Numbered from the stretch's first letter, positions 6,201-51,864 are shown. The stretch is 64,000 nucleotides of DNA from Blasia pusilla (GCA_050084515.1 CM114271.1:36022001-36086000), one strand, 5' to 3'. Numbers and translations are program-made. The notes: generated from the sequence alone by a model not told the origin.

Positions 6201-7212
6201 ATAAAAGGTTGAGAGGATTCAATACAAGAATATAAGATTAATACGAATCCGCGAATACATAAAGATGGACAATATAAAATGACGAAGAATACATAAAGAT
6301 GGTCAATACCCAATTAATACAAATCCGTGCAACAAGTAAAAGTGTAAGAGTTAAGAGTTATGGATAATACATTAAGACGCGAATACAAAATACGACCAAT
6401 ACGTCGAGAACCTAATCCTATTCATCCAATAATTGGTGTGACTACAGAAAGTATTGGATTCTGCACGTACCTAAGAGGGAACCGAAAAATACAGGCTTTA
6501 AGTTGGGGCCGTAAATATTTCCTCTACCAACCCTTCCTACCTTAGGACACGTACATGGTCATCCGTGGACCTGTCCATCCCTAGGACTAGTAAGACAAAC
6601 ATGTCCGGGCACCCAAACGTGTCGAATTTGTAATGAAGATCTAGGTTTGTTCAACTCGCACCTACTTATAGTCCACATGAAGCTTGCAAGACAGGTTCAG
6701 GCATGCACGGCCTTGAGCCCGCCCAACCTGCCCTACGGGCAGTATGCGGGCTTTATGCGGTGTACAAAATAGGTTTGGGTTGGATGAGCGCGGGTCTATG
6801 TTATATGCTCGGTGGGCTCGGATGTGGACGAGAACCTGTTGGGCATGTTTGTCTCATGGACGGACTTGTTCGTTTCCACGTAACCTTGCTCCCACCCGAC
6901 AACCTTTCTTGCACTTACGCAAGAAAAATTGAGAGTTCAAGGTTTATCGCCCAGCCACTAGGAGACAGTTCAAAATTCTCCATTATCACATCTTTGGTGT
7001 TTACGACCCATACGAATACTCCTTGTCTTCAACCTATCTAAGTGTCTTTTATGAGTTATGTCACGTCTTTTATGATAGATCGGTGAGATCTAGTAGAGCG
7101 CCTTCGTGAGTAATAGAAGACAGGCTCAATAGGTCGAGGATGACCTACTGAGGCTCCGGGAGACCTGAGAGAGCAGGTTTCCTCTTCGTTTCGGCTCATT
7201 TAGGGCCATATT

Positions 7213-8217
7213 GAGGAACTTACTATTTTAGGTAAGTACCATTTTGAGTATATAATTGACTTTATATTTTTTGTAAGTGGCCCTTGACCTCCTACATCAG
7301 GTCAAGAGCTAAGGAGGTGACTTGGGAGCATAGGTTACCATGGAGAGAGCTTGGGAGAGGGGAGGGGTATACCTAAAGGAGAGAGAGCTTGAGAGCTCAT
7401 TCTCTCTTTGTTGAACTTGTCGTGCAAATACACATCGCTGTACAACATACAATGTTGTCATCGAACACACACAAAAACACACACGATCCCATGCTAACTC
7501 ATGGCATCCATACACAGAGGCAAGAAGTACCAAAATATCTCCAATTAAAGTAAGATCCAATCTCTCTCTACACCATCTCACACCATAACTCTCAAAAGTG
7601 TGCACTCTCTCTCATGTCAAACCAAACCCACTCTCCTAATGAGAGGCTTGGGTTATACTCACAAGGCAAGGGACCATAGCTCCGCCGCCTTATGCCAAGA
7701 GGTTCAACAAAGAGAGAATGAGCTCTCAAGCTCACTCTTGGAGGTATACCCCCTTCCCTATCCCAAGCCCTCTCAACGGTAACCTATGCTCGTAGGTCAC
7801 CTCCTTGGCTCTTGACCTGCTGTAGCGGGTCAAGGGCCACTTCCCAAAGTGGAAATTCAACTATCCCCAACATGGAAACTTACCCAAAATAGTAAGTTTA
7901 TCTATATGGCTCCAAATAAGCCGAAATGAAGGGGAAACCTGTTCTCTCAGGTTTCCCGGGGCCTCAACAGGTCATCCTCGATCTCCCGGGCCTATCCTCC
8001 ACTACTCGTGCAGACGCTCTGGTAGATCCCACCGATCTATCTTAACAGTCGTGACAAACCTCTTGGCATGAGGCGGAGGAGCTATGGTCTTGCTTGCCTT
8101 GTGTGTGTAACCCAAGCCTCTCATTAGGAGAGTGGGTTTGGTTTGACATTGAGAGACATGTGAGAGTGCACACATGTGAGAACTATGGTGTTGTGAGAAA
8201 GATTGGATCATATTTTA
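7213..8217 (+). repeat. 5' direct repeat 'B' (LTR-like) of gypsy copy 1, split by solo insertion 7418-8056
   Basis: GAGGAACTTACTATTTT...ATTGGATC.TATTTTA matches 19466-19829 and 43694-44053 once the insertion is removed. Confidence 0.9.
7418..8056 (-). mobile_element. Solo terminal unit (A-B-C, 639 bp) of the same gypsy family, inverted
   Basis: Reverse complement reads TGTCACGACTG...GCACGACA and aligns to 5' segment A, repeat B and 3' segment C; flanked by AACT/AACC (4-bp TSD, one mismatch). Confidence 0.9.
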
Positions 8218-8232
8218 CAAAGAGAGAATGAG
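8217..8232 (+). promoter_or_regulatory. Putative self-priming primer binding site of gypsy copy 1
   Basis: ACAAAGAGAGAATGAG is the exact reverse complement of CTCATTCTCTCTTTGT at 7396-7411; the same pair occurs at 44053-44068 / 43877-43892. Confidence 0.65.
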
Positions 8233-9810
8233 TGATTGAGAGAGCTTCATAGGGGAGCTTGCTGGTTGCTCGATGTTTGGTGCAGGTTGGGGGACCGTAT
8301 TCCCCACTTTATGGTTCATGGGAGTGCTCACCGGAGCAAGAGCCGTGCGAGTTTTCTGTTTTGCTTTGTTGATTTTTGGTACGGGAGAGTGGCACGCGGA
8401 AGCGCTGCCCAATTTTTGATAGGAATTGAGTATGGGGGCGGATTGCTCCATGCTAGTGCTCTCGAGAGCACCATATAGTTTGCTGATTTGTGTCCTTACA
8501 AGTTTTAGATTTTCATTGGGAGAAATTAGGGCGGAAGCGCTACCAAATTTTGTGTAGGAGAAAGAGACATTGGGCTTTACAAAAATCCTTGTCAGTTTTC
8601 ACTCGAATGTCCGATTCAAAATATTTTGTGATAGCGTCGTAGATCGTGAAGCTATACACATTGTGCAATAGATGGTGTGTAATTTATAGTTGCAAAGAAA
8701 AATTTATGGTCAATCTTGCAAAATTGCCATTGATAGGAAATTTTTAGGGTTAAATTGTTCAAACCCTAAACCAGCCGCCACGCCGGCGGCGGCCATCCCC
8801 GTCATAGTCACCATCAACGGTCCACTGTCAATGGTCAATTGTCACCGTCAATAGTCAACCGTTACCGTCAACGGTCCGCCGTCACCATCAATCGTCCACC
8901 ATCCACCGTCCACTGTCGGCTGTTGTCCACCCTTGGTTGCCATTGCCGCCATTACGGAGTAGAGGATCTTCCACGACGCCCGTTGATTCTCTATCTTGCG
9001 CCGCCACCACGTACTTTATTTTGGCCACCATTGTCATCGCATTTTCGTCATCAACTAGTGATGGCAGGTGACCTCGGGTTATGGTGTTTGAGTTTTCATT
9101 TCATGCTGCTATGTTATGATTGGTAGTTGCTCGACGACGATTGAGTACCCTGCCGTGACGCCCGTAGCCGCAATGCGCCGCCGATTGCCGCGCCGTGCCG
9201 CTCGTGGCCGCACCGCACCGTCTTGATCGCGAAGTTGGTCCTTCACTAAGGACCAGAGTGTGTGAATTGCTGATTTTGGAGGGTATGCCATCGAGTGCCG
9301 CACCCCATTCCTGAGTGCCGTGCCATTTGTAGCCGTTCCGTGCTGCCAGTGCCGCACTGGACGGCCGGACCTGCACCGCACATCGAGGAGGTTTGATCAG
9401 CGTCCGTACGAGAGGAGTACGACTTGCTGATTGGAGGAGTTGTCTTCACCACCAAGTTGGGGTCGAGATTGCAATTGTCGAGGAGCGAAATTGACATTAT
9501 TGTCAAGTTACCCATTCTGGTCTCTTACCCTGGACGTGTGAGGGAATTACGCATATTGGGCAGTTATTTGGGGATATTGGGTTTCGTGCAGATGCTTAAA
9601 GCACCATTGATGTATGGGTTTAGGGGACATAGACCTATGTGGGATGTCCAGAGTTGAGGGTATATCTTGTCAATGAGATGATAGGATGGTAGTCGATTGC
9701 CACACCATGCCGCTTGTTGCCGCACAATTCACGTCTCAGTGAGAGAGTGTAGATTGAGTACTGCATGTTAGATTGAGTAATTAAGTGATTACACGCAAGG
9801 TTGAAAATGA

Positions 9811-11345
9811 TTGCGAGAGAGGGGCATGAGGGTCATCACGGGGTCCTTTCGGGATTTTGACAGGCGAGGTAGTGGACCTGAGAGTAGCTCTGGAGGGTTT
9901 ACCCGGAGTGGTGCGAGGTTCCGAGGGCCTCCACGTGAGAGACCACCTCGATCTCCTTCTATGTCATCTTCACACGAGGGAAAGCGTGTAGAGGAGCGTG
10001 TTAATGATCCAATGTACACATTGAGTGATCCTACTAGTTGGGCGTACGAGATGGACGACCAAAATAGAGGACCGCATAGGTTTTCAAGTGCTCTAGGCAC
10101 CGTAAAGCTACACGACTTCATTGCGGAGTTTAGGAGTTGGTATGACTCACAACGGGCTAGGAACTCTAGAGAGTTCAACCTGTTTACATCATGGAACGGT
10201 ATGTTCCAGCATTTAGAGGGGGCGCCCATGGACGATTACCATGAGTTCTCCCACAAATATGCCGAAGAGATTGAGGCATGGCGACTCTACTATGACCCAT
10301 ACTATGTGTCATGGACCGAGCCGTTCCCAGATGAGGAGGAGGAGTTATGAGAGGCTACTTCCTCTTCCACTAGTGATGTTTTAGGAGGGATCACTCGCAT
10401 TGGAGCAATTGCACCCTCTAGTCAGGTTCGTTCAGGTTCAACCCCGTGGTTGAGTTCTTCGCTGAGTTGAGGGCAAGCTACCACGGGGTACGGACGGAGA
10501 AGTTGCGGAGCATCCACGACTTCCAGAGGCGCCCAAGTGAGAGTTTGCATGAGGCTTACACTCGCTTGCGCCGGTTGATCAACATCACTCAAGGGGTGAT
10601 AGAGGCTCAGGCTATCCAGTCATGGTATGCGATGCTGGACCGGATCCTACGGACACGGGTGCGGGAGGGGTGCTTCTTATGAACACCTCCCATATGTTGA
10701 GAGATGTTTTTAGGACTGCTAAGAACATTGAGCGCAACATGGCGGAGGAGAGCGTAACCACCATGGGTTCTGGGCGAGAGCAGTTACGATTGTCTGCACC
10801 ACTTGTGCAGCAACGTGGACTCCGAGATAGGTCAACTGTGACACCACGAGCTCAGGAAAGATATCAGGAGGCCGTGCCACAGAGACGTGCGCCTTCATAT
10901 GCGGCTCAGCAGCACCCACCTACGATTACTTGTTGGTCATATGGTGGAGCCCATCATCCGTGTGATTGCACTCATTAGAGTCACGGATGTGTGCCTCAGC
11001 ATGGAGGAGGAGATGGTGCTGCACCACGAGGTTATCAGTGTGACTATTGTTAGAGGTATGGTCATTCACGCGCCAGGTGTTTCAATTTACATCTTGAGTT
11101 ACGTATGGACCGAGGGCCAGAGAGGGCACCAGAGCATGTAGCCGGTCCGGGTGGGCCTAGAGATCGTGCACCAGGTGGTCCCGTTGGGGGACGAGGAGCT
11201 GGAGTTGTCCGATAGGGTGGCGGAGCTAGCCATGGAGGAGGTAGAGTCCCAGCATCTAGATGCGTTGAGGGAGACGTTGGGCGCGAGGCTAGGATGGCTG
11301 ATTAGATACATCAATTATAGGAGCAAATTTCCGCTATGGCATTGA
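9811..11345 (+). pseudogene. gag (capsid-like region plus two CCHC zinc knuckles), frameshifted
   Basis: EFFAELRASYHGVRTEKLRSIHDFQRRPSESLHEAYTRLRRL (retrotransposon gag-like); knuckles TCWS(Y/C)GGAHH..DC and CDYC*RYGH...RC. Confidence 0.8.
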
Positions 11346-11827
11346 GATTACCTGATGTCGGATTAGTGGCATCGACATCATATGGAACAGCAAGAGATAC
11401 GGAGGATCCTGGTTGGATGTGCGGGATTGCCCAGTTGGAGGCCGCCATAGTTCTAAAGTGTGGAGCAGCCGCAAAGTTGGATCCACAACAAGGGGAAACT
11501 AGGAAATAGACTAGTCTTCCTCAATGTTTCACGTTGTTTGAGGCGATGAAGATCCCATCGATGGGTCTTGATCAGAATTCCTGGAGAGTTGGTGATGTTG
11601 TTGGTGTGCAGGCACGGAGGACGATGGGAGAAGCAAGTATGAAGACTCCTATTGTTGATGCTCATGAGGGGCATGTGTCGAGCTTGTTGCTGGGGGCGGC
11701 CACCGTTGTGTACCGCGCTCCTTTATTTTCTGCTTCCAATGTTATGACATCGGGAAGTACGCCCGTCGAGGTTCTTTGGCTAGCCGCTACGCTATGTGAG
11801 CGTGGAGTTGGAGTTCCAGCATCACGT

Positions 11828-13111
11828 TGTCGTGTCGAGAGCCTTTCTTCGAGCAAGGGCGGGCCTTCTAGCTGCGGTAGATGCGATCGATGCAAGGTGA
11901 ACTCTCTAAGAAGTTCTCCTTTTTCAATACAAAATTATGATGTACGCTCTCCATTCTCTCACGACAGGTATCACAAATGGAAGTGCTGAGGCGATCACTT
12001 CTTCGTAACATCGGACCCCGAAATTCCTAACTATAAAATCCCTATAAACTATTTTACGCTTGTACACGAGGAAGATAGCACAACTAGTGTTAAACCCTAC
12101 TTGAGCAGGCCTATTGACATCCATGGGTCGCTATATAAGGACATACAAAGTACAATCCCATGTCCTTCCATATGTGACGATAGGAAGAATCACCGGAGTT
12201 GGAGATTGGATACCCTGGTTCATGAACGCCTTCCCAAAGTGATAAACTAAATATCGAGTGAACCAGTGTCTATCTACAAAGAGTACCTTGACATGGCATG
12301 GATTGAAGAAAGGAAAGTCGGGCACAACTCGTGCTCCACCCCTATCCATGCTTGACAGACATTCTTTTCTCTCTTCAAGAATGGATTTTGGCGGAATTAT
12401 TCTCCCAAGAGGGGTAATCCACTCTCATTGGGGAATTAACAAGCCAAAACATTCACTATTTTAGTATGACTAAACTCTTCTAAGGTGAAAAACCTCTCAT
12501 CTCCACACACACACACACACCACACTCTAGAAACCTCTCGAAGAATAGATCATGATCAAGTTACTCTCCCAAGAGAGGTGATCCATTCTCATTGGAAGAG
12601 CAAGCAATCCCAAAGCCATACACTCAAGAGAGACACGAGAGACTCAAGATATGGAATAGAAGGTGATGAACCCTTGAAGGTCCCTCCTCTTTATATATTC
12701 AAAAGAGACCCACAAGAGTACGAAATAGAACTAATCTTATCTTGTGCCACATGGGTTCCTCTCAAGGCTTAGCCAATCACATTTTGACACAAGTAAATTT
12801 CTTCTTATCTCTTCCAAAATATCCTCTTTCACCTACTTGATATTTTCCAAATTACCCCAACTAATCTAGCCACCAACCAAGCCTACTTTTTCTTTTCATT
12901 AAAGCACTAACCTCACTACTTTACTTTAATAAAGTCATCCTTTATTTATTACCTCTTTTCCTAAAGTTGGGCCCGCATAAAAGAGGCACCATAAAGAGGT
13001 GTAAACATGGGAATTTCCTTTTCCTAAGCTAATTTACTTAATACTAATAAAACTCTCTCTAACACTTAACTAGGAAGGAGTTTACATACTGGCTGATTTT
13101 ACTATACGACA
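11828..13111. mobile_element. Nested solo-LTR-like insertion (1284 bp)
   Basis: Termini TGTCGT...ACGACA; perfect 4-bp TSD ACGT (11824-11827, 13112-13115); absent at the homologous site of copy 2 (~47647). Confidence 0.85.
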
Positions 13112-13156
13112 ACGTTCAGAGGTGATTGCCGAGGAGGTGATGGACCTGCCCTTGGA

Positions 13157-14157
13157 TGTCGCGACCCTCATGACCAAACAAGTGCCAAGCGGAACATCGG
13201 AACATTAGCGGGCTCACGCTAAGATGGTTTGCGCGTTGGAGTTGTCTCAAGGAGGAGACAAGAGACGAGACGCGAGCGAGAAGTCGCGTTTCAGATGTGA
13301 TGGTCGCGACTCAGAAACCTGGACCAAACGCGGAATGAGACTTGAAAGAAGTCGAGTCTAGGAAGTGGGTTGCCAAAGGAAAGATCCGGATTTGGAACGC
13401 CACTTGCGTTTGAGAGTTTCCGACTGTATTTATGGCCATAACTTTTAGCGCCGAGATGCGTTTGGAGCAAATAAGGGTGCGTTGGAAAGCTTATGGAGAA
13501 CCAGTCCAAACGCACCAAAGATCACTGCAAACGCATAAGCAGCAGCCAAGATACGACCCAAAAACGACTGTAAATGGAGTCGGGTTGAGGGCCACAATGA
13601 AGGCCCGAACCTCTTTTCCCAAAGGGAAGGGGTTATTGGAGAACCCCAGAAGTACTAGTAAGGGGGAAGGTCTCCGAGAATGCTTGGAACCCAAACCCCA
13701 CTTTGGGCGCCGCGGGGCCGCTCAAGGGCATGAAACGGAACGCGAGTTTGGGCGTTGGGTTGGAAAACCTGCACCAAGTCCATTGAGGCGATTTTAGACA
13801 TCCCTCTTGGATTTCACGCCGCGACTCAATTACTTGGGTCTCGGTTCGGAACTCACACGAGAACCGTTGAACAGTTGGGATCGCTAGGCGTGCAAGTGCC
13901 GTTTCAGATCCCTGGACTAACCAGGAAGTCTGTTCCAAGTCTTGAAGGACTTGCCATGTGTGGGGAGCTAGGAACTAAGGAAGGTTGAGCTTGATGAGAT
14001 GCCGAGTTGAGGACTCGGTGGGTTGGAACGCCGGTTGGCCAAACCCGACTAACGAGAGTGCGTGTTTGGGTGCAGATCGGCGATGAGTTCGTGACCTACT
14101 GAACGCACGCTTCCGCAACACTAAAGATTGACGTTCAAGGAGAGTAGGGGCGCGACA
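13157..14157. mobile_element. Nested solo-LTR-like insertion (1001 bp)
   Basis: Termini TGTCGCGACCC...GGGGCGCGACA; perfect 5-bp TSD TTGGA (13152-13156, 14158-14162); absent in copy 2. Confidence 0.85.
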
Positions 14158-14214
14158 TTGGAGTAGATGCTCGAGCCGTCCACGTCAGATTCATGGTAGG
14201 CTGTAACTGCTAGG

Positions 14215-14847
14215 ATGGCGAAGATGCCCACTAGACCCGAGATAGAGCATGCCATGGTTTTTCTTGGTGTTTTGTTGCTGGAGAAACGGGGAGAGGTCTT
14301 CCAATTGGTGAGTCCCGGAGGTAGAGCTTTTAGTCCGCAGCGTGTCTTGTTAGATTCAAGAGCGCAACCCCTGATGTTGGGGAAAGCGTCATTAAGAGGA
14401 TTGGGCTTGACGAGAGCCGATGTGGAGCGTTTTCCATTCCGGATACAGATATCCTTGGATGGAGAGAGTACCACACAATATATCACCCGACATGAGGTTG
14501 TGGTGAGGATTTTCCTAGGACATCCTACAGATGAGTCTGTGGTGCGAGCCAAGGCCATAGTGACTGATGCAGAGTCCTACGACGTCTTGGTTGGTGGAAC
14601 ATTGTTATATCCAATGGGGTTTTTCCTGGATTACTGGGAGAAGTCAGCGTCCTACAGACTAGGATGGCAGTCAGGTGATGGGCCCCTTAGCTCATTACCT
14701 GTTCGATTCACAGATGCAGTGATCGAGCGACGGCGAGGAGAGATGGCGACCTTAGCAACATTTAGTAGTGCCATCACTTGTCTTAGTGATTTGATTGAGG
14801 GACATGTCCATCCAGAGTATACTTTCGTTTATGATATTCCTATGTAG
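14215..14847 (+). pseudogene. Retroviral-type aspartic protease domain of gypsy pol
   Basis: RVLLDSRAQPLMLG (degenerate D-S-G) and YDVLVGG (D-x-L-x-G) motifs. Confidence 0.8.
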
Positions 14848-15060
14848 AGTAGTGTCATGGTAGTTGCATCAGTCTGTGGAGGAAAGGTGCCGTTTTTGGG
14901 CTCGACTGAGGAGCTTCGACGCTTAGCCATTGAGCATGTGCAAACCGTGTGGAGCGAGACGTTTGCACTTGAGTATGACGGATTAGAGGAACCCCAAGTA
15001 GGTAGGAGTGTTACTATGACCCCTTTGGACACCATCCCAATTTTGTGGTGCATCCCAAAG

Positions 15061-16000
15061 AAGGGTATTTGGGTGTTGGATCTCTTTGGAGGGATCAACA
15101 CTAGGTTAGTTGCTGTTTTGCACGCTGGAGTGTGCGTGCAGCAATACCTATATGTGGAGATTGATGATGTTACGAGGCACGCTTCACTTCACCATGTGGC
15201 GTTGTTACTCCTTCATTTTCTCGACTTGTTGTCTGCGTCCGCCATTCAAGATTACCAGAGTTCCTTATCGAGGGATATTTCATTGTTGGGGACGCAGGAC
15301 TTGGAGCGGGTAGGGACCATAGACTTGGTCATTACTGGTTGGCCGTGTCACGGCCAATCAAGTGCTAGACAAAGAAGCTTGTTAGCTTTTGGAAGATGAT
15401 GCGGATCTTGCGACATTTAAAGGAGCATCACCCTTCTTCTCCAGCATATATTTTGTAGAATATGCCAATTTTGGGCGATTTGAGGTCCCACGTGGTGACG
15501 AGTGCACATCATGTTCGAGCAAAGATTTTCCCGACAGTGTTGTTAGATGCGGTGAGTGTAGGTTCTAGAGCATACCGCCCGTGTGTTTGGTGGACCAACT
15601 TGATGCCACATCAGGTATTGCGGAGGGCATATGCGAGAGTGGAGCGCTCCTCTGATTTGTTGGTGGATTCTATATTGGATTTGGGCGGTCAATCACACGC
15701 TGTCAGGCACGATGATGGACCGCCGTTGATTGTGGTCAACAGGATTGGCATGCCACGAGCAGCCTTTTCCACATTGGTGAGTTTTCGTGCTACCTATGCA
15801 TTCAAGGAGGCCGGACCTAGTTTGGTTTGGGATGACCAGGTACAGAGGTTGGTGGAGCCCAACGCCGATGAGCAAGAGCAAGCGATGGGATTTCCCACAC
15901 GAGTGAGAGCAGTACCGTCACTACCGGAGGCAACACGACGTCATGTCTTGGGTCAGGAAATGGACCTGAACTGCTTGACATGGATTGTAAACTTAGGAGT
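15061..16000 (+). pseudogene. DNMT3-like C5 cytosine DNA methyltransferase domain embedded in gypsy pol
   Basis: Ordered motifs: I VLDLFGGI, II YVEID, IV DLVITGWPCHGQS, VI YIL*NM (ENV in copy 2), VIII DAVSVGSRAYRPCVWWTNL (AHRPRLWWTNL in copy 2), IX EQAMGFP, X RRHVLGQEMD. One frameshift near 15370 and a stop at 15456. Confidence 0.9.
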
Positions 16001-16304
16001 AGCTGAGCAACGTCGTTTGAGGATGCGATGCATCACAAAAGTTGCGTTGGTGAGCCCCATGCCTATCGAGACAGTTGAGGCATTGGCTGGGGGTGAGACC
16101 CAAGGAGATCGACACACCAGGGGTGATCGGGAGAGACACCCTTGGACTTCTTGGGATGTTTTGCAGGTACATCCGGAGATGATAGCCACAACATTGAGTG
16201 TGGTTCCAGATACCACACGTGGAGATGAGAGTTCTATTGTCCGAGACGAGGTTACACCATAGAAACCACCGACACCCGCGTCGGAGAGTCCTATTGTAGT
16301 CACA

Positions 16305-17778
16305 ATGGAGACTTGGGAGCCAGATATGGGCCCTAAGTTGACAAGAGGAGAGCAGTGCTGGATACACCAGTTCCTTTGGAGTTATAGGAGCTATTTTGCA
16401 TTTAGTATGCATGATTTGGGTATGCTGAAGGGTCCAGGGATCCGCATTGAGTTATCGAGTGACAAGCCGATCTTCCAACGACCCTTCAGGTATAGTGACA
16501 TGGAGAGGGCTCTGATTCACCGTAGGATCCAGGACTTGGTTGGAGCACGACTAGTGGAGATGTCGCATGGAGAGTATGCATCTACCACTATCATGCCCGC
16601 CAAGAAGGATGTGCATGGAAATTGGACGGATAGGCGGATGTGTGGAGATTACCGACCTATCAATCGGAAGACAAAGTTTGATAGGTATGCCATGCCCACC
16701 CCTGAGGAGATCTTTGATGCGATTGGGCATACAAAGATCTTTAGTTCATTGGATTTGCGAGCTGGATACCATCAATTGCCTATCAGAGTAGAGGACAGGC
16801 ACAAGACGGCATTTTGGGGCATCAATCCTCACGGGAAGGATTGTTTGTACCAATGGCGGTTCTTACCATTTGGGTTAAAGAACGCCCGGCTGAATTTCAG
16901 AAGGTCATGGATAGGATCTTGGCAGGTTTGGATTTTGCTAGGTGTTATATTGATGACATCGTAGTCTTTAGCGCCACAATTGAGGAGCATGAGCGACATC
17001 TAGAGGAAATGTTTCGACAATTGCTCTTACATGGGCTAAAGTTACATCCATGCAAGTGCAAGTTCTTCCATGGCTAGATTGAGTACTTGGGTCATACGAT
17101 ATACCTAGGGGGACTTGGTGTGCAATCGATGAAGGTAGAGGCTATTTCACGCATTCCACGCCCTACAGATGTGAGTCGAGTTCGTGCATTAATGGGATTG
17201 GCGAACTTCTATCGACGGTACGTCAAGGGTTTCAGTGTGATTACGAAGCCGCTAATCTTGAAAACCAAGGTAGATCAAGAGTGGCACTTGGAGGATGAGC
17301 AAGAGAGAGCATTTCAGATGCTCAAGGAAAGATTGACGTCCGCATCCATATTGAGGAGACCAATCAAGGGGCGTTCTTTCAATTGCTTATCGATTGGAGC
17401 ATGTTGGGGCTTACAGCCGTGCTCACCCAGCATGACGATGATGGTAGAGAGTTCATGGTGGCTTATGCTAGTCGCTCGAACAACGCTGCAGAGGTTAAGT
17501 ATAGCTCGTATAAGGGTGAGTGCTTGGCTGTAGTGTGGGCTGTTGCACATTTTAGATGTTATCTATTCGGAAATCCCCTTACCATCATTACTCATCATGA
17601 GCCACTTAAGTGGTTAATGGAGTCCGACAAGCTTACAAGAAAGCTTGCGAGGTGGGCTCTTTTGTTGCAGGAGTATGATTTCCAGGTGGTGCATAGACCT
17701 GGGACGCTCAACCAGGATGCAGATGGTTTGAGCCATAACCCATGCTTGAGTCAGCAAGATATGACTCGAGCTCATTAG
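16305..17778 (+). pseudogene. Reverse transcriptase and RNase H of gypsy copy 1
   Basis: RMCGDYRPIN, SLDLRAGYHQ, LPFGLKNA, YIDDIVVF; RNase H DWSMLGLTAVLTQ, VAYASRS, ECLAVVWAV, LARWALLLQEYDF. Confidence 0.95.
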
Positions 17779-18109
17779 CATGGTGAGAGTGATGAGGAGT
17801 TGGTGCTAGGATGGCATGCTTCAGCCTATTTGGGCTTGGTGGCTATGGAGAGCCAGATTCTTGAGACTTTGATGGCGAGGTCTGATGGAAAGTCCTTAGA
17901 TCCAGAGGCCGGTGAAGAGACAATACGTGACCGAGATATTCACGACAATGGAGTGGTCTTGGAGTATCTGTGTATTGGCAGCGTCGCGAGCACAGTGGGT
18001 ATGAGAGAGCGGGATCGGATCCTACAGTGAGCCAGACGGTTTCGGTGGGAGGGCACACATGTATTACGAGTGTGGGCGGATGGTAGAGTGCGTGTAGTGC
18101 CTCATCCTT

Positions 18110-19200
18110 TGTAGAGAGCACGTTTGGTGCGTCATGCCCACGAGGAGTTGGGTCATTTTGGAATGAAGCGGACGTACAGCTTGCTCTAGATTTAGTATTG
18201 GTGACGAGGCATGCAGATTGACGTTCAGCAGTTTGTTGCCAGATGCATGGTGTGTGATCGAGTCCGAGCATCGTTCAATGCTTTGACTCCATAGTTGCAT
18301 CCACTTCCGATCATGGATTTAGGTTATAGATGGAGTTTGGATTTTGCAGGACCTTTGCCTTTGACGGAGCGCCATAGTCGTTATGTGTTGGTGATGGTCG
18401 AGCACTTCTTGAAGTGGATAGAGTTAGTTGCATTGCCTGACAAAGCGAGTGAGGGAGTAACGTATGCCTTCCTAGATCGAGAGCTGAGTCATTACGGTGT
18501 ACCAGCTGAGGAGTTGACAAACCAGGACATGGTTGCGGGGAGTTTCAGGCCTTGTGTGATCAGGCACCAATCAACCACCGCACTAGTTCGCGAGATCATC
18601 CTGAGGCGGATGGACTAGCGGAGCTGGTTGTGCGGACGATGAAGAGAGGACTACACAAGTATGGCTTGTAGAGAGGTCACCTAGGAGATTGAAAACCTTT
18701 AGTTGTCGTGGTTGGCGATGGGATACAAATTCAGCAGGGAGGCATCCTTAACGTCTTTCTCACCATACTTGTTGCTTTATGGCCGAGAGCCAGATTTACC
18801 TGCAGCCATTTTTCGAGATGTTGGTGAGGTGTTGAACCTTGAGGACCCTGATGCATGGATGTGAGCATGTTCTTAGAGGGCTGAGTTGTTTCGGAGAGTG
18901 ATGCCCATGGCGTTTGAGAACTTGGCAATTGCGCAACATCGAGATACGTTGAGGTATGCAACTATTCGTGGAGGTGGTTATCGACCTACTATCTAGAGGT
19001 TTCATTAGGGACACTATGTCTACTTGCAGCAGACGGCACCCACGATGTTGGATGTGACTGCAAGACGCACCATCTTGAGAGTGCGTGAGGTTTTGCCATC
19101 TAGTGTTCTCTTATTGGAGGGACGCGATGGTATGGTTTGGAAGGACCATGTGCGTAATTATACGCCATGTCATCTTCTGAACTTTGACGGTACACTTGAT
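18110..19200 (+). pseudogene. Integrase (HHCC zinc finger, catalytic core, C-terminal domain) of gypsy copy 1
   Basis: HAHEELGHFG...CMVCDR; WSLDFAGPLP..YVLVMVEHF..WIE; several stops and frameshifts. Confidence 0.9.
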
Positions 19201-19230
19201 CTGAGCTTAGCAATAGTTCCTGCAGGCTTG

Positions 19231-19374
19231 CGATTTATGTTGTGTGGTTCCTCCCGTAGTGCAGCCACTATGCTAGTCAGTGATGGGTGTTCGAGAGGAT
19301 GGCATATAGCATGTTTGATGCCATCTCTCACTAGGATTCTTGAGGGACGATGGATGTGTCCCACATGTTCATAG
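19231..19374 (+). pseudogene. PHD finger at the C-terminus of pol
   Basis: (F)MLC...MLV(S)DGCSRGWHIACLMPSL..ILEGRWMCPTC fits C4HC3 spacing; two Cys are one substitution away (TTT, AGT from TGT). Confidence 0.85.
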
Positions 19375-19465
19375 AATAGGTAGTTCTACATTCCGACTTG
19401 TGTCTGTGACATGAATGACATGAAGGCGACTAACGATGGGGCCACATGAGCACATTAGCGTCCGA

Positions 19466-19829
19466 GAGGAACTTACTATTTTAGATAAGTATCATTTTGA
19501 GTATATGATCGACTTTCTATTTTTGGTAAGTGACCCTTGACTTCCTACATCAAGTCAAGAGCCTAGGAGGTGACTTGGAAGCATAGGTTACCATGGAGAG
19601 AGCTTCGGAGAGGGGAGGGGTATACCTCAATCAGAGAGAGTTTGACAGCTCATTCTCTCTTTGTTGAACCTCTTGGCATGAGACGGCGGAGCTATGGTCT
19701 TGCTTGCCTTGTGTGTGTAACCCGAGCCTCTCATTAGGAGAGTGGGTTTGGTTTGACATTGAGAGAGATATGTGAGAGTGCACACATGTAAGAACTATGG
19801 TGTTGTGAGAGAGATTGGATCTTATTTTA
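19466..19829 (+). repeat. 3' direct repeat 'B' of gypsy copy 1, followed by unique terminal segment C (19830-19956)
   Basis: Aligns to 7213-7417 plus 8057-8217; segment C aligns to the solo unit end (7418-~7545, minus). Confidence 0.9.
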
Positions 19830-20054
19830 TTGGAGATATTTTGGTACTTCTTGTCTTGTTGTTTTAATGCCATGAGTTAGCATGGGATCGTTTGTGTTTG
19901 TGTGTGTGTTCGATGACAGCGATGTATGTTGTGTAGCGATGTGTATGCGCACGATAATTATGATAACAAGTATAAGGCCACATAACGCTTTAAGCATATG
20001 GGGAATTCAAAGTGTGTATGGAATGCACTTTGTGGGATCTTGAATGCTTGGAAT

Positions 20055-43539: not shown

Positions 43540-46500
43540 TGTCACGTCTTTTAGGATAGATCGGTGGGATCTAATAGAGCGGCTTCATGAGTAGTGGAGG
43601 ACACGCCTAGTAGGTCGAGGGTGAGCAGCTGAGGCCCTTGGAAACCTGAGATAGCAGGTTTTCCCTTCGTTTCGACTCATTTGGAGCCATATTGAGGAAC
43701 TTACTATTTTAGGTAAGTACCATTTTGAGTATATGATCGACTTACTATTTTTGGTAAGTGGCCCTTGACCTCCTATATCAGGTCAAGAGCCAAGGAGGTG
43801 ACTTGGGAGAATAGGTTACCATGGAGAGAGCTTGGGAGAGGAGAGGGGTATACCTCAAGGAGAGAGAGCTTGAGAGCTCATTCTCTCTTTGTTGAACCTC
43901 TTGGAATGAGGCGGCGGAACTATGGTACCTTGCCTTGTGAGTGTTACCCAAGCCTCTCATTAGGAGAGTGGGTTTGGTTTGACATGAGAGAGAGTGCACA
44001 CCTTTGAGAGCTATGGTGTGAGATGGTGGAGAGAGAGATTGGATCTTACTTTACAAAGAGAGAATGAGAGAATGAGAGAGTGAGAGAGCTTCATGGGGGA
44101 GCTTGCTGGTCACTCGCTTTTTTTGCAGGTTGGGGACCGTGTTTCCCGTTCAGCGGCTCATGGGAGTGCTCACCGGAGCAAGGGCTGCTTTCATTACTCT
44201 TTGCATTTGCCAATTTGCCGATTTTTCGTGTGGAAGAGTGGCGCGCGGAAGCGCTGCCCAATTTCTGATAGGGATTGAGTATGGGGGCGGGTTGCCCCAT
44301 GCTGGTGCTCTCGGGAGCACCATGTAGCTTGCTGATTTGTAGTTTTACAGATCTTACATTTTAGTTAGGAGAAATCAGCGAGGAGTGCTGCCGAATTTTG
44401 TATAGGAGAAAGAGACATTGGGCTTTACGACAGTCCCCGTCAGTTTTTACTGAAATGTCCGATTCTAAATATTTTTTGATGGTAGCGTAGATCGTGGAGC
44501 TGTGCACGCTGTGCAACAAACAATGCACAATTTGGAGTTGCGAGCAAAAAGTTATGGGCAATCTTGTAAAGCTGCCATTGCTAGGCGATTTTTAGGGTTG
44601 AATCGTGCAAACCCTAAATCAGCTGCCACACCGGCGGCGGCCGTCGCCATCATAGTCACCGTCAACAGTCGACGGTCAATCATCACCGTCAACGGTCAAT
44701 CATCACCGTCAACGGTCAACCGTCACAATCAACGGTCAACCGTCACCGTCTTCGGTCGGCCGTCACCATCAGCAGTCAACCGTCACTGTCAAGGGTCCAC
44801 CGTCCATTGTCCACCCTTTGGGTGCCATTGCCGCCATTACGGAGTGGAGGGTCTTCCATGACGTTCGTTGATTCCTTGACTTGCGTCGCCACCACGTACT
44901 TTGTTTTGGCCGCCACCGTCATCGCAGTTTCTTCATCAACCTGTGAAGGCAGATGACCTCCGGTTATGGTGTTTGAGTTTTGATTTCATGCTGCTATGTT
45001 GTGATTAGTAGCCGCTCGACGACGATCGAGTATCGTGCCGTGACGCCCGTAGCCGCAACGCGCCGTGCCGCTCGTGGCCGCATCGCACCATTTCGATCAC
45101 GGAGCCGCACCGTCATTGTGGAGCAGAGTGTGGGATTATTATTGATTGAGGAGGGTATGCCGCCATCGAGGGCCACCATCGAGGGCCGTGCCGTTCGTAG
45201 CCGTTCCGTGCCGCATGCAACGCCAAGACCGTTCGGCGGGACCGCATCTTTGTCTATCGAGGAGTTTTGAGCAGCATCAGTACGGGAGGAGTATGACTTG
45301 CTGATTGGAGGAGTTGTCTCCACGATCGAGTTGGGGTCGAGATTTGCAGTTGCTGAGGAGCGACATCGACATGTGTTTAGGTTACCCATTCTGGTCCTTT
45401 ACCCCGCACGTGTGAGGGATTTAGGATTTATTTGGGGATATTGGGTGTGTGGATCTTTGAGAGCATCATTTATGTATGTGGTTTAGGGGACATAGACCTG
45501 TGTGGGATGTCCGGAGTTGAGGGTAGGTTATCGATGATATGATAGCCTGGTCGATTTGCCACACCACGCCGCGTGTTGCCGCACGTTACACGTCGCGGGG
45601 AGAGAGAGTGTAGATCGAGTGCCGCATGTTTGGGATGAGTGATTGAGGGATTCCTCACGAGGTTCGAGTGATCGGGTGAGAGGGGCACGAGGGTCATCAC
45701 GAGTCTGTTCGGGACTTTGAGAGGCGAGGTGGTGAACCCAGGAGTAGCTCTAGAGGTTTTACGCGGAGTGGCGCGAGGTTTCGAGGGTCTCCACGTGAGG
45801 GACCACCTCCACCTCCTTCTGTGTCATCGTCAGACGAGGGGGAGGGTGTAGAGGAGTTTGTGAGCACATCGCCACACATTGTGAGTGGTCCTACCGGTTG
45901 GGCGTCATTGAGATGGACGACCGGGGTAGAGGACCACGAGGTTTTCAGTGCGTGAGGAACGATTGAGTTGCACGATTTTTATAGCGAGTTTAGGAGTTGG
46001 TGCGACTCCCGGGCCAGGAACTCTAGAGAGTTCAACCCGTTCTGACATGGAACGGTATGTTCCAAAGATTTAGAGGGGGCGCCCATGGGCGATTACCATG
46101 AGTTCTCTCGAGAGATATGCATGTGAGATCGAGGCGTGGAGGCTCTACTATGACCCATATTATGTGTCTTGGACGGAGCCGTTCCCGAGATGAGGAGGAG
46201 GAGTCGGGAGAGGCTCGCCTCTTCCACTAGTGACGTTTTAGGAGGGGTCACCGCACGGGAGCGATTGCACCGTCTAGTCGGGTTCGCCCCGAGTTCAACT
46301 CGTGGTTGAGTTCTTTTTTGAGTTGAGGGCGAGCTACCAGGGGGTACGGACGGAGAAGTTGCGGAGCATCCACGACTTCCAGAGGCGCTCAGGTGAGAGT
46401 TTGTGTGAGGCTTACACTCGCTTGCGCCGGTTGATCAACGTCACTCAGGGGGTGACAGAGGCTCAGGCTATCCGGTCATGGTATGCGATCTTTGGATCGG

Positions 46501-49500: not shown

Positions 49501-51116
49501 TTGACATGGATCCTCGCTTGGGAGAGGTGAAGCGTCATATGAGATCGCGACAGATCACGGCCGGTTGCGTTAGTGAGCCCCATGCCTACCGAGATGGTGG
49601 AGGCGTGGGTCGGGGTGAGACCCGAGGAGATCTACGCACGGGGAGATCGGGAGAGACACCCTTGGACTTCATGGGATGTTTTGAAGGTACGCAAGGAGAT
49701 GATAGCCACAAAGATCGAGCATGGTTTTGCACCGCACGTGGAGGAGATCGAGTTTGCGATTGGCTGCAGGAGAGCGGCCGAGTGTTGTTGTTCGAGACGG
49801 GGGTTGCACCATAGCAACCACCGATACCCGCCGGAGAGTCCTACCATAGTCACGATGGAGACTTGGGAGCCGATATGGGCCCTAAGTTGACAGGAGGAGA
49901 GCGGCGCCGAATACATCAGTTCCTCGGAGTTATAGGAGCCGCTGCGTTTAGCATGGAGGATTTGGGTATTTGAATGGACCGGGATCCGCATTGAGTTGTC
50001 GAGTGATATGCCAATCTTCCGGCGACCCCTACAGTACTGATGATATGGAGAGGGCTCGATTGAGTAGGAGCAAGACTTGGTCGAGCAAGACTAGTGGAGA
50101 TGTCGCATGGGGAGTATGCTTACGCCCACTATCATGCCCGCCAAGAAGAATGTGCATGGCAACTGGACGGATAGGCGGATGTGTGGGGATTACCGACCTA
50201 TCAATCGCGACGAAGTCCGATAGGTATGCCATGCCCACCCCGAGGAGATCTTTGATGCGATTGGTCACGCAAAGGTCTTGATTCATTGATTTGCGAGTGG
50301 ATACCATTAGCCGCCTATCGATTGGAGGACAAAGAAGACGGCATTTTGGGGCATCGATCCTCACGGGAAGGATTGTTTGTACGAGTGGCGGTTCTTACCA
50401 TTTGGGTTAAAGAAGGGACCGGGGATTTGGGTACGCTGAAGGGACCGGGATCCGCATTGAGTTGTCGAGTGATATGCCGATCTTCCGACGACCCTACAGG
50501 TATAGTGATATGGAGAGGGCTCGATTGAGTAGGAGCCAAGACTTGGTCGGAGCAGGACTAGTGGAGATGTCGCATGGGGAGTATGCTTCTGCCATTGTCA
50601 TGCCCGCCAAGAAGAATGTGCATGGCAACTGGACGGATAGGCGGATGTGTGGGGATTACCGACCTATCAATCGGCGCACGCAAGTCCGATAGGTATGCCA
50701 TGCCCACCCCCGAGGAGATCTTTGATGCGATTGGTCACGCAAAGGTCTTGATTCATTGATTTCGAAGCCGATACCATCAGCGCCTATCGATTGGAGGACA
50801 GGTAAGACGGCATTTTGGGGCATCGAGCCTCATGGGAAGGATTGTTTGTACGAGTGGCGGTTCTTACCATTTGGGTTAAAGAACGCCCCGGCTGAGTTTC
50901 AGAGGGTCATGGATAGGATCTTGGCTGGTCTGGATTTTGCTAAGTGTTATATTGATGACATCATAGTCTTTAGCGCCACGGTTGAGGAGCACGAGCAACA
51001 TCTAGAGGAGGTGTTTCGACGATTGCAATTACATGGGCTGAAGCTACATCGAGGCAAGTGCAAGTTCTTCTACGACCAGATTGAGTACTTGGCTCATTCG
51101 ATATACCCAGGTGACT
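43540..51116 (+). mobile_element. Ty3/gypsy methyltransferase-bearing retrotransposon copy 2, 3'-truncated within RT
   Basis: Starts TGTCACGTC precisely within the Mutator-like ORF (empty site at ~59370); A-B terminus, leader, gag, PR, MTase ~48580-49520 (IRVLDLFGGISIG, VGWPC, ENVP, AHRPRLWWTNL, VMGFP, VLGQAMD), RT YIDD; many small indels. Confidence 0.92.
49958..50883 (+). repeat. ~460-bp tandem duplication of the RT N-terminal region
   Basis: GGATTTGGGTA..GGATCCGCATTGAG...GGGTTAAAGAA occurs at ~49958-50414 and ~50423-50883. Confidence 0.85.
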
Positions 51117-51133
51117 CAACCACCTGGATACGG

Positions 51134-51864
51134 GTATGGGGGCGGGTTGCTCCATGCCAATGCTCTCCAGAGCACCATGTAGCTCTTTGATTTTTTTTAG
51201 AGGTTTTCAATTTTCTTTGGAAGAAATCAGCACGGAAGTGTTGCCAAAATTTATGTAGGAGAAGAGACGTTGGGACTTACGACAGTCTTTGTCAGTTTTT
51301 ATTCGAAGGTCCGATTCAAAAAACTTTTTAACCCCATTCTAGATTGCAAAAATGCGGGGTGTACAATAGGCGGTCGTGATTTGGAGCTGCAAGCAAAAAG
51401 TTATGGTCAATCTTGCAAAATTGTCATTGTTAGGCAATTTTTACGGTAAAATTGTTCAAACCCTAAACCAGCCTCCGCGTTGGCAGCGGCCGTTTCCGTT
51501 AAAGTCATCGTCAATGGTCAACTGTCACCATGAATGGTCCACTAATGCTGTAATCGGTCCACCGTCATCATCAACAGTCCACCGTCCACCGTCAGCTGCC
51601 ACCGCCGCCTAGCTCTGCTCAGAGCCGCGTTCGGTCGTTGTCCGCCATTACCGCCATTACGGAGTGGACAATCTTCCACGATGACCATTGATTCTTTGAC
51701 TTGCGCCGCTACCAAGTACTTTATTGTGGCCGCCACTATCATTGCAGTTTCGTCATCAAGTAGTGATGGAAAGTGACCTCGGGTTATGATGTTTGAGATT
51801 TCATTTCATTTTGCTATGTTGTGATTGGTAGCCGCTCGACGATGATCGAGTACCGTGCGGTGAC
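51134..51864 (+). mobile_element. 5' leader fragment of a third member of the gypsy family
   Basis: Aligns to ~8430-9160 and ~44280-45045 (GTATGGGGGCGG...GTAGCCGCTCGACGA..GTGAC). Confidence 0.8.

Follow-up and report, generated by a model that had tools for sequence, protein, structure and literature searches.

Results

The 64,000-nt stretch analysed here (the window; Blasia pusilla, GCA_050084515.1 CM114271.1:36022001-36086000) contains a decayed Ty3/gypsy retrotransposon with reverse transcriptase, RNase H, integrase, a C-terminal PHD finger and a putative DNMT-like region. Its ends are unusual. Copy 1 has the layout A-B / internal / B-C, in which B is a direct repeat and A and C are unique outer segments of 154 and 127 nt. 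Copy 2 independently shows A-B followed by internal sequence. Both this layout and the positions of the repeats agree with a preliminary description of the locus, which had also set the element beside algal elements such as REM1. That framing is wrong for the host, which is a liverwort and not an alga. The window offered two left ends, one right end and one solo unit for examination (Table 1).

Table 1. Features of the element in the window, numbered from its first nucleotide.
Feature	Position	Strand	Remarks
Left outer target-site duplication GTTA, copy 1	7055..7058	.	3/4 match to ATTA
A of copy 1, unique outer left segment starting TGTCACG	7059..7212	+	3 places in window
5' B, first part: U3 portion and first 21 nt of predicted transcript	7213..7416	+	91.2% identity (186/204) to 19466-19669
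TATA motif, kept in all four B copies	7368..7371	+	28 nt upstream of self-primer site
Predicted self-primer (first 16 nt of element RNA)	7396..7411	+	exact complement of PBS
Nested solo unit A-B-C, 639 bp, inverted	7418..8056	-	flanks AACT 7414-7417, AACC 8057-8060
5' B, second part (R/U5), ends directly at PBS	8061..8216	+	95.5% identity (150/157) to 3' B
Putative self-priming PBS ACAAAGAGAGAATGAG	8217..8232	+	perfect reverse complement of 7396-7411 and 19649-19664
Internal region of copy 1, decayed, many stops and frameshifts	8233..19465	+	
Pol N-terminal region, similar to protease/DNMT-bearing part of related polyproteins	14131..15986	+	tblastn P0127, P0219
Reverse transcriptase	16263..17074	+	Pfam RVT_1, E 1.2e-07 and 7.4e-12, two frames
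RNase H	17299..17775	+	Pfam RT_RNaseH, E 2.3e-32
Integrase, zinc-binding part and DDE core	17779..18615	+	Pfam rve, E 2.5e-4, on 18295-18615
C-terminal PHD finger, natural Pol end	19009..19371	+	Pfam PHD, E 5.5e-08; stop codon 19372-19374
Purine run GAGAGGAA across internal/B joint, candidate polypurine tract	19464..19471	+	8 nt
3' B, with second self-primer site 19649-19664	19466..19829	+	
C, unique GT-rich outer right segment ending CACGATA	19830..19956	+	2 copies in window
Right outer target-site duplication ATTA, copy 1	19957..19960	.	
Copy 2, A (43540-43693) and B (43694-44052)	43540..44052	+	internal sequence then follows
PBS of copy 2, adjoins B	44053..44068	+	
Copy 2 internal region, cut off in RT region, no 3' end	44069..51111	+	
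Copy 3 fragment, more diverged, corresponds to copy 1 8430-9159	51134..51864	+	copia element cuts right side

Identical direct repeats of the LTR type do not stand at the two termini of copy 1; B is sub-terminal and has no TG...CA ends of its own. The TG...CA termini and short target duplication of a Ty3/gypsy element are found at the outer edges of A and C (TGTCACG...CGACA/CGATA), where the preliminary description had placed them. The position and the 4-bp length of the outer duplications were confirmed, but only three of four positions match in both copy 1 and the solo unit (AACT/AACC).

The profile search of the 64 kb with nhmmer placed A at 7059, at 43540 and, inverted, at 8056 and nowhere else, and C at two places. 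The next best matches had E-values of 0.31 and 2.7. The C segments of copy 1 and of the solo unit are 86.6% identical (110/127). Smith-Waterman comparisons against shuffled sequences bear out that A is absent from the right end and C from the left. Compared with the 200 nt that precede the 3' B, the three A copies scored no better than background (339, 169 and 453 of 500 shuffles equalled or exceeded the score). The same held for C when it was compared with the 200 nt downstream of each 5' B (127, 99, 469 and 370 of 500 shuffles). The two outer segments show no relationship with one another, and a conserved TATA is lacking in A. No internal match to A or C of at least 10 nt exceeded chance, and no local alignment was significant. 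Empty A-C junctions lacking B, which the preliminary description proposed to look for, were not found in the 64 kb by nhmmer, nor did a search of the window find an internal copy of the C/A junction.

At the 5' end of copy 1, A is followed by B in two pieces (7213-7416 and 8057-8217), split by the solo unit 20 nt downstream of the predicted start site. B is continuous across this insertion apart from the 4-bp duplication, and the A-B-C structure ascribed earlier to the insertion is correct. Identity between the two B copies of copy 1 is 93% (336/361). The copies differ in 28 columns, with 14 derived changes in one copy and 8 in the other. Because these differences are scattered and mostly confined to a single copy, they are what is expected for sister LTRs, which would have been identical at insertion. 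Sub-type-specific indels are common to both copies up to about 30 nt from the B/C joint. C is found in the 3' end and in the solo unit, across both LTR sub-types.

The preliminary description offered two explanations, an unusual replication route and site-specific nesting, and for the second it pointed to ATTG at both junctions. ATTG is exact at the inner joints of copy 1 (7210-7213 and 19829-19832); those of the solo unit read ATAG/ATTG. On the nesting model, an integrase would repeatedly insert a B-LTR retrotransposon at one ATTG of a small A-C element (281 bp, TG...CA ends). The ATTG flanking B...B in copy 1, with its ATAG/ATTG counterpart in the solo unit, has the 4-bp length of the outer duplications, and parsing the element at ATTG ends B at 8216, the base beside the PBS, as reverse transcription predicts. 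The jump in identity between copies described below is also located at the A/B joint. However, the ATTG parsing leaves B with the ends AG...TT and not TG...CA, and a TG/CA parsing fails at three of the four terminal bases of the 3' B. The window has no empty A-C sites to set against three occupied ones, an extra base is needed at the right joint of the solo unit, and ATTG on both sides requires two chance base identities. Repeated nesting of this kind is quite improbable.

The internal region of copy 1 begins with a leader and ORFs without assignment (8233 to about 14100), and the stretch 11828-14165 is largely missing from copy 2. The N-terminal part of Pol is 42-56% identical to the part of Marchantia polymorpha P0127 that holds Pfam DNA_methylase (residues 460-529); Pfam made no DNMT call in the decayed window ORFs of 14131-15986. 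Reverse transcriptase, RNase H and integrase follow in this order on one strand, as in Ty3/gypsy elements. Relatives with Integrase_H2C2 and rve align continuously from 17377 to 19371 in tblastn, and the C-termini of four relatives align to 19371 (726/728, 1028/1033, 1038/1039 and 1081/1083), so that the natural end of Pol lies 94 nt before the 3' B. Pfam called no chromodomain at the integrase C-terminus, where a PHD finger is present instead. It also found no tyrosine recombinase or phage-integrase domain in 23 plus-strand ORFs. The closest proteins include relatives from Klebsormidium and Marchantia, some with Pfam DNA_methylase and PHD. Since Pol reaches its natural C-terminus and no remnant of A was found in the 200 nt before B, the 3' joint does not have the look of an obvious coding-side deletion.

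These copies might instead descend from a canonical family whose LTRs were A-B-C. A U5 variant without C (an A-B LTR, TGTC...TTTTACA) would then replicate normally, and copy 1 would be a hybrid or recombinant whose 3' A was deleted. Several features fit. Even though C is missing, the 5' LTR finishes in ACA (8217-8219) before the rest of the PBS, a workable integrase end. Copy 1 is old, its LTRs being 93% identical, and it bears further indels as well as a nested insertion; its imperfect outer duplications would suit a recombinant. The model nevertheless requires several independent events, namely an indel placed precisely between B and CA, a hybrid pairing of 5' and 3' LTRs and a base-exact deletion of the 3' A. 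In standard reverse transcription the two U5 copies come out alike, and here the two B copies have their sub-type indels in common almost to the B/C joint. No A or C remnant was found in the 200-nt stretches searched, and the identity jump at the A/B joint of a different copy would have to be a coincidence. We regard such a derivation as improbable.

A 16-nt sequence, the putative PBS, directly adjoins the 5' B in both copies and is the exact reverse complement (16/16) of a site inside every B. The 16-mer has six perfect occurrences in the window, where 0.09 matches with at most two mismatches are expected by chance. In the minimum free energy fold of copy 2, nucleotides 1-16 are paired with the PBS. 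The B/PBS joint is identical in the two copies, which are about 17% diverged. The complementarity points to a transcription start at 7396 and marks the site as a predicted self-priming PBS of the Tf1/Tcn1 type. As this PBS adjoins B, B alone would be the repeat regenerated by reverse transcription. The preliminary description saw no polypurine tract before the 3' B, and indeed no purine tract lies upstream of it. B itself, however, starts with GAGGAA, and the run GAGAGGAA crosses the joint; six of its eight nucleotides belong to B, and these last six also start the 5' B (7213-7218).

It had been argued before that A and C cannot be restored by standard LTR reverse transcription. The argument is strengthened by the predicted self-priming PBS adjoining B, by the natural end of Pol close to the 3' B and by the sister-like B copies.

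Homology of copy 2 to copy 1 begins exactly at the first base of A, and the upstream flank of copy 2 is a different repeat. Copy 2 also has a 465-bp tandem duplication (49958-50422 / 50423-50891). Identity between the two copies jumps from 82% to 94% at the A/B joint, with 26/146 mismatches in A, 17 in the next 299 columns and 12 in the last 60. The fitted left break falls in mismatch-free columns 146-194, which include the A/B joint at column 154 (2*dLL 20.3), and Fisher's test of A against B1 mismatches gave p 2.8e-4. This interval covers 49 nt of about 500, and it would coincide with the A/B joint by chance roughly 1 time in 10. Elsewhere the copies are about 74-90% identical; A is 17% diverged, about the same as the non-coding leader. 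The mismatch pattern suggests the exchange of a tract that was confined to B and ended at the A/B joint.

Collapsed or chimeric repeats in the assembly might also produce asymmetric ends, and the region is repeat-rich and nested. Such an artefact is very improbable, given the same B/PBS joint in two diverged copies at different sites, the clean nesting of the solo unit with its duplication and the coherent divergence patterns.

Discussion

The recognition, dating and classification of LTR retrotransposons all presume that the two ends carry one and the same LTR. The element described here departs from this in a structured way, in that the repeat which reverse transcription rebuilds appears to differ in sequence from the ends that serve in integration.

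We tentatively favour the explanation that cDNA with B at its ends was inserted by homology into A-B-C units already present, as shown for Tf1/Tf2. Copy 1 is an old liverwort Ty3/gypsy element, which would belong to a streptophyte lineage with a DNMT-like region and a C-terminal PHD finger in Pol. Its reverse transcription would be primed by the 5' end of its own RNA, as in Tf1 and the plant Tcn1 clade. Only B would be rebuilt, with a U3 of about 183 nt, from the purine run at the internal/B joint to the TATA-driven start at 7396, and an R/U5 of about 177 nt, from this start to the PBS touching B. A and C would not be copied. They may be the flanking portions of a longer unit of LTR type, A-B-C, that has TGTC...ACA ends and makes a 4-bp target duplication; the nested solo unit would be an example of it. 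cDNA with B ends could enter a resident A-B-C unit by homology, without integrase, to give A-B-PBS...B-C, and later B-by-B recombination would give A-B-C again. Canonical elements with A-B-C LTRs would once have seeded the A...C sites.

In Schizosaccharomyces pombe, Tf1 cDNA enters resident Tf2 copies, giving hybrids and tandems, and Tf1 insertion without integrase uses single-stranded PBS and PPT tails and Rad52 (available text of PMC11042837). We prefer entry by homology because this behaviour of Tf1, the closest experimental model, yields the same anatomy without a new mechanism. With this precedent, the lack of an empty A-C site in the window and the lack of TG...CA ends on B, neither explanation in the preliminary description is the best supported.

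Several points count against entry by homology, besides the few ends available and the roughly 1 in 10 chance that the identity jump meets the A/B joint by coincidence. The window contains neither a canonical A-B-C/PBS element nor a B-internal-B copy that lacks A and C, and it shows no empty site, so that the postulated source of A...C sites was not observed there. The 17% divergence of A, like that of the leader, suits equally well an A inherited along with the internal region. The exact ATTG flanking B...B in copy 1 resembles a staggered-cut insertion more than homologous recombination.

Another possibility is that A-B...B-C is the propagated form of the family, with A and C carried through each cycle, perhaps by a circular or concatemeric intermediate opened by integrase at C/A (ACA/TGT) or by a full-length transcript. 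In both LTR sub-types C is missing from the 5' end but present at a 3' end or in a solo unit. Copies that differ by about 17% have an identical B/PBS joint, A has diverged as far as the lineage has, and all three A...C units in the window hold B. A non-canonical repeat layout has been reported for a related Klebsormidium element, KnitGypsy-Dnmt3 of the same broad lineage, with DIRS-like repeats and Gypsy domains (available text of PMC5890265), which favours a lineage-specific replication route. Against this, a transcript from the predicted start at 7396 could not include A, which has no conserved TATA of its own. The window has no internal copy of the C/A junction, of A or of C, so the template of a DIRS-type mechanism is missing; A and C are unrelated, no tyrosine recombinase was detected, and the layout is unlike A-coding-B-A-B. 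The sister B copies of copy 1 would have been rebuilt by ordinary LTR logic. We consider this route unlikely. In its broader form, A-B...B-C would be the replicating form and, together with KnitGypsy-Dnmt3, would show that a streptophyte gypsy lineage bearing an integrase departed from the two-jump LTR scheme. Its integrase-recognised ends would lie outside the reverse-transcribed repeat, and an undescribed route, for example a circle or concatemer opened at C/A, would be needed. This, too, is rather unlikely.

If cDNA did enter resident LTRs by homology, the element would be a natural plant example of an integrase-independent pathway so far shown in fission yeast, and LTR-based age estimates and annotation pipelines would be affected. 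If the layout itself is propagated, it would point to an undescribed replication route in a lineage with DNMT and PHD chromatin modules.

Among known systems, Tf1 and Tf2 resemble the liverwort element in having a PBS beside the 5' repeat that is complementary to their own transcript start, and the Tf1 LTR has the same left end, TGTC. Unlike the element, they are bounded by two ordinary LTRs that are identical. Tf1 and Tf2 carry a chromodomain and are not known to carry a PHD finger, and the self-primer complementarity of Tf1 is 11 nt versus 16 nt here. The available text of PMC11042837 describes no Tf products with unique outer segments. The Tcn1 clade of chromoviruses (mosses, club-mosses) is similar in its features: the host is of bryophyte grade and self-priming is predicted. 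For this clade, related to Tf1/Sushi, self-priming is predicted instead of a tRNA PBS; in plants generally, whether target duplications have 4 or 5 bp is specific to the lineage (PMC6317226, as far as its text is available). Tcn1 elements differ in their chromodomain and canonical TG...CA LTRs, for example the 440-bp LTRs of SM-Tcn1 (PMC2864245), and the liverwort element in its PHD finger and putative DNMT-like region.

KnitGypsy-Dnmt3 and the streptophyte Gypsy-DNMT3 elements are alike in their Gypsy-type Pol with a DNMT-related region, which in the liverwort element is a putative one. The repeat structure of KnitGypsy-Dnmt3, which has Gypsy domains, is reported as 'the same as that of a DIRS retrotransposon', and the DIRS layout given in the accessible part of that source is A-coding-B-A-B (PMC5890265). 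Judged by this description, the liverwort element differs in that just B is repeated, with no second A or C. DIRS, PAT and Ngaro elements are not known to make a target duplication. They have a tyrosine recombinase, A1-B1-A2-B2 repeats and an internal copy of the circle junction, whereas the liverwort element encodes a DDE integrase, is flanked by target duplications and lacks an internal copy of the junction. They are similar in that their termini are not simple identical LTRs; the layout of their split direct repeats implies that the ends are restored by something other than the standard two jumps (PMC4157794, text available in part). REM1 of Chlamydomonas, cited in the available text of PMC6673714 as a PHD-finger-encoding LTR retrotransposon, resembles the element in this finger.

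The copy 3 fragment lies head-to-tail with copy 2, 22 nt behind it. We counted this arrangement, beside the tandems known for Tf elements, in favour of entry by homology.

Organization of the element and its termini

The features were mapped with a repeat finder, by a BLAST search of the window with the nested unit, and from a four-way MAFFT alignment. The window holds two left ends of the element, a single right end and a single solo unit. Copy 1 is a Ty3/gypsy retrotransposon in which a direct repeat (B) is flanked on the outside by unique segments, A on the left and C on the right. The preliminary description had read it as A-B...B-C, and all three methods bear this map out. They also show copy 2 as A-B followed by internal sequence and the solo unit as A-B-C, as had been described. 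Copy 2 breaks off in the RT region and so has no right end.

Features of the two element copies and of the nested solo unit (positions within the window)
Feature	Position	Strand	Remarks
A of copy 1	7059-7212	+	element's left end, then B
5' B of copy 1	interrupted at 7416/7417, continues from 8057, ends 8216/8217	+	split by the solo unit
Solo unit, 639 bp	7418-8056	-	A-B-C on the minus strand; inserted in 5' B
Internal region of copy 1	end of 5' B (8216/8217) to 19465	+	
3' B of copy 1	19466-19829	+	
C of copy 1	19830-19956	+	
Copy 2	from 43540	+	A-B, then internal sequence as in copy 1

Homology between the two copies starts exactly at base 1 of A, and the flanks upstream of each are unrelated. 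A is thus a genuine terminus of a mobile element. The sequence upstream of copy 2 was rejected as element sequence, since it belongs to an unrelated repeat and gave no tblastx match with copy 1. The outer ends of A...C are TGTC...ACA, with 4-bp duplications. The duplications had been described at the outer edges of A and C and are present there, but only three of four positions match in each (GTTA/ATTA for copy 1, AACT/AACC for the solo unit).

No significant alignment to A was found in the 200 nt upstream of the 3' B, nor to C in the 200 nt downstream of the 5' B of copies 1 and 2. The scores lie within the shuffle distributions, which agrees with the claim that A is missing at the right end and C at the left. 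A GGGCCACATGAG motif noticed by eye upstream of the 3' B as an A remnant also scored at background. Profile searches of the 64 kb recovered three copies of A and two of C. The empty A-C junctions lacking B that had been envisaged were not found by these searches or by BLAST in the 64-kb window, and neither were further solo units. A and C are unrelated in either orientation and so are not diverged versions of one sequence; the inverted terminus that they have in common is TGTC plus one further base only. As a small RNA gene or SINE, A-C matched no Rfam family at gathering score, and there is no tRNA in the window. The right end of copy 2 was also sought through the paralogous flank at 57678-59370; the sequence past this flank has no counterpart in the window. 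It is very improbable that the arrangement is a product of misassembly.

The left flank of copy 1 (7043-7054) reads TGTC and then TTTTATGA, and was compared with 7059-7075. The 11-mer GTCTTTTATGA (7044-7054) recurs 21 nt downstream in A and resembles the first 17 nt of A minus 5 nt. The right flank (19958-19965), TTATGATA, equals nucleotides 12-19 of A (7070-7077). TTATGA is found in both flanks, at 7048-7053 and 19958-19963. Just 3' of copy 1, a 45-bp AT-rich unit occurs three times in tandem (20047-20182).

A predicted self-priming site and the extent of B

Directly after both 5' B copies lies the same 16-nt sequence, ACAAAGAGAGAATGAG (8217-8232 in copy 1 and 44053-44068 in copy 2). It is the perfect reverse complement of a site present in every B (7396-7411, 19649-19664, 43877-43892 and the site of the solo unit). 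The 16-mer has six perfect occurrences in the window, against 0.09 matches expected by chance at two or fewer mismatches. This complementarity between the primer-binding site (PBS) and the self-primer site matches the design of the Tf1/Sushi self-priming retrotransposons, Tf1 being the best-studied self-priming element. According to PMC6317226, self-priming is predicted for most plant Tcn1-clade elements, those of mosses and club-mosses. A TATA motif is kept in all four B copies, 28 nt upstream of the self-primer site. Folded to minimum energy, the predicted leader of copy 2 pairs nucleotides 1-16 with the PBS (-71.1 kcal/mol, z -2.2); 7/200 shuffles did equally well. The one tRNA-type PBS candidate, starting with TGG at 8277, is not kept in copy 2.

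Since the self-priming PBS adjoins B, the repeat that is reverse-transcribed extends on the right to the end of B and not of C. On the left, B opens with GAGGAA; read together with the last two internal bases, this gives GAGAGGAA across the internal|B joint, which we take to resemble the Ty3 polypurine tract (PPT). The earlier statement that no PPT precedes the 3' B stands in that no other PPT-like run exists, but GAGAGGAA straddles the joint. With the PBS at its right edge and GAGAGGAA at its left, B appears to behave as a complete LTR with a U3 of ~183 nt and an R/U5 of ~177 nt, A and C being outside it. The transcription start, the polyadenylation site and the use of the PPT are predictions from the sequence. 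We also considered B as a TG...CA LTR; the 5' copy fits (TGAGGAAC...TTTTACA), but the 3' copy is wrong at three of four terminal bases.

The ATTG pair is exact in copy 1, and parsing on ATTG puts the end of B at the base adjoining the PBS. Both points speak for nesting by integrase at an ATTG of a separate A-C element. The ends of B would, however, then be AG...TT, and the window has no empty A-C unit; we consider this origin improbable.

The inverted solo unit sits (7414-7417 / 8057-8060) 20 nt downstream of the transcription start site predicted within the copy 1 LTR (self-primer site 7396-7411). On its own strand, 6 nt past the end of C, is a perfect 16-nt PBS sequence, the reverse of the self-primer of the host LTR. 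The position could reflect Tf1-like promoter targeting, tethering by a PBS tail, or chance.

Coding region and lineage

The internal region of copy 1 encodes, on the plus strand, RT, RNase H, integrase and a C-terminal PHD finger. A protein search with the RNase H ORF gave 324 proteins at E <= 0.001 among 637 candidates. Many of these are polyproteins of ~1000-1100 aa with RT, RNase H, integrase and PHD, and some bear Pfam DNA_methylase; the named sources are Calypogeia, Riccia, Marchantia polymorpha and Klebsormidium nitens. Eight of the relatives' proteins were used as tblastn queries onto the window. The C-termini of four of them reach 19371 in copy 1, and Pol of this copy therefore ends at a natural stop, which leaves 94 nt up to the 3' B. 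Upstream of RT, tblastn showed homology of 14131-15986 (copy 1) and 47601-49512 (copy 2) to the DNMT-match part of the Marchantia polymorpha and other polyproteins. Pfam made no DNMT call in the decayed ORFs of the window. Given the relatives with PHD and DNA_methylase and the homology to the DNMT part, we place the element with the streptophyte Gypsy-DNMT3 elements, which were, according to PMC5890265, first reported in Klebsormidium. It seems to be a liverwort member of this lineage, known from Klebsormidium. Judged from its sequence, the element is a self-priming, PHD-bearing, DNMT-related liverwort gypsy.

The RT region of copy 2 has a 465-bp tandem duplication (49958-50422 / 50423-50891, 91.7% identity). 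Of the copy 1 stretch 11828-14165, copy 2 has only 36 nt (13116-13151, 97% identity), either through insertions in copy 1 or through deletion in copy 2; the ORFs of this stretch contain no Pfam domain.

Exchange of a tract bounded by B

The 5' and 3' B of copy 1 share 93% identity (336/361). They differ in 28 columns, which are spread out rather than clustered and carry no crossover signature; the derived state is in the 3' copy at 14 of these and in the 5' copy at 8. The pair has in common sub-type-specific indels that are missing from copy 2 and the solo unit. At insertion, then, the two were sisters.

Between copies 1 and 2, mismatches number 26 over columns 1-146 (A), 17 over the following 299 and 12 over the final 60; the internal regions have 74-90% identity per 300-column window. 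The fitted left break falls inside the mismatch-free columns 146-194, which include the A|B joint at column 154 (2*dLL 20.3), and the mismatch contrast of A versus B1 has a p value of 2.8e-4 in Fisher's test. This mosaic identity thus points to the exchange between lineages of a tract bounded on the left by the start of B. The exchange dates from about the time of copy 1 insertion, at the modest resolution of a 49-nt break window in ~500 nt. Within that resolution, the identity break offers independent support, from a second copy, for a mobile cDNA beginning at B. The solo unit is also mosaic: over A and the first part of B its identity to the others is ~80-83%, and over the second part of B it reaches 94% with copy 2.

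These data bear on whether a canonical A-B-C family gave rise to both copies by deletion or hybrid formation. The 5' LTR lacking C retains ACA before the PBS and could work as a short-U5 variant. Against this, copy 1 requires a mixed 5'/3' pair as well as an exact loss of A, and the identity break in copy 2 must be coincidence. Such a derivation is improbable.

Origin of the unique ends

The claim that standard LTR reverse transcription cannot recreate A and C is upheld by the PBS adjoining B and by the position of A. A cannot be recreated because it is upstream of the predicted start site and missing at the 3' end, and C because it is downstream of the repeat and missing at the 5' end. The repeat that is reverse-transcribed (B) thus differs in sequence from the termini of integration, which are the left edge of A and the right edge of C. 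The TGTC...ACA ends and the 4-bp duplications imply, therefore, a past insertion by integrase of some element with A...C ends. The LTR of Tf1 also starts with TGTC, the same as A here. The simplest origin of such ends would be an LTR of A-B-C form, as in the solo unit.

Standard reverse transcription of an A-B-PBS...B-C copy would yield a B-bounded cDNA. This cDNA would enter a resident A-B-C through the homology of B, giving A-B-PBS...B-C with both B copies from the cDNA, and subsequent B x B recombination would give A-B-C again. Tf1 cDNA is reported to keep single-stranded PBS and PPT tails and to enter the genome independently of integrase by Rad52-dependent annealing, with products that include tandems and hybrids; this route makes up ~4% of wild-type Tf1 events (PMC11042837). 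We favor such docking as the most likely route, at slightly under even chance.

An alternative is that the non-canonical A-B...B-C layout is itself propagated. The B|PBS joint is identical in copies ~17% apart, both sub-types have C, either at the 3' end or in the solo unit, A has diverged as much as the leader, and no empty site lies in the window. KnitGypsy-Dnmt3 is also remarked to have DIRS-like repeats in the legend of Fig. 4c of PMC5890265. However, RNA from the predicted start site cannot include A, the element has neither an internal junction copy nor a tyrosine recombinase, and the repeat order differs from A-coding-B-A-B. A propagated layout is unlikely. A DIRS-type internal template was rejected, as there is no internal A, C or C|A junction copy. 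C of copy 1 (19918-19933) matches 19229-19245 at 15/16 positions, which 1/300 shuffles reached; this match was set aside because C of the solo unit lacks it (29/300 shuffles).

A third copy fragment (51134-51864) follows the truncated copy 2 head-to-tail after 22 nt. It is more diverged, with 73-75% identity to copies 1 and 2, and its right side is cut by a copia element. The fragment may be the remnant of a tandem pair, an arrangement that the docking route yields.

Other features of the window

The Ty1/copia element is present in two copies of opposite orientation, 34039-39671 (+) and 51866-56601 (-), with ~87% identity and the domains RVT_2, gag_pre-integrs and Pol_BBD. Another repeat, a tandem-repeat block plus ~1.6 kb, occurs at 41330-43539 and 56831-59370 (80-87% identity). 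The homology of the two stops at one and the same base; copy 2 is inserted at this base in the first, and unrelated sequence follows it in the second.

An intact, intronless amidohydrolase gene of 407 aa, 6-methylsalicylate decarboxylase-like, lies at 28348-29568 (+; Pfam Amidohydro_2, E 5.6e-27). Its best named relatives are from Marchantia paleacea and Riccia (65-71% identity), which makes the host a complex thalloid liverwort and not an alga. Outside the liverworts, the relatives are mostly bacterial (cyanobacteria, actinobacteria and proteobacteria) at ~50% identity, and the gene may be an old horizontal acquisition.
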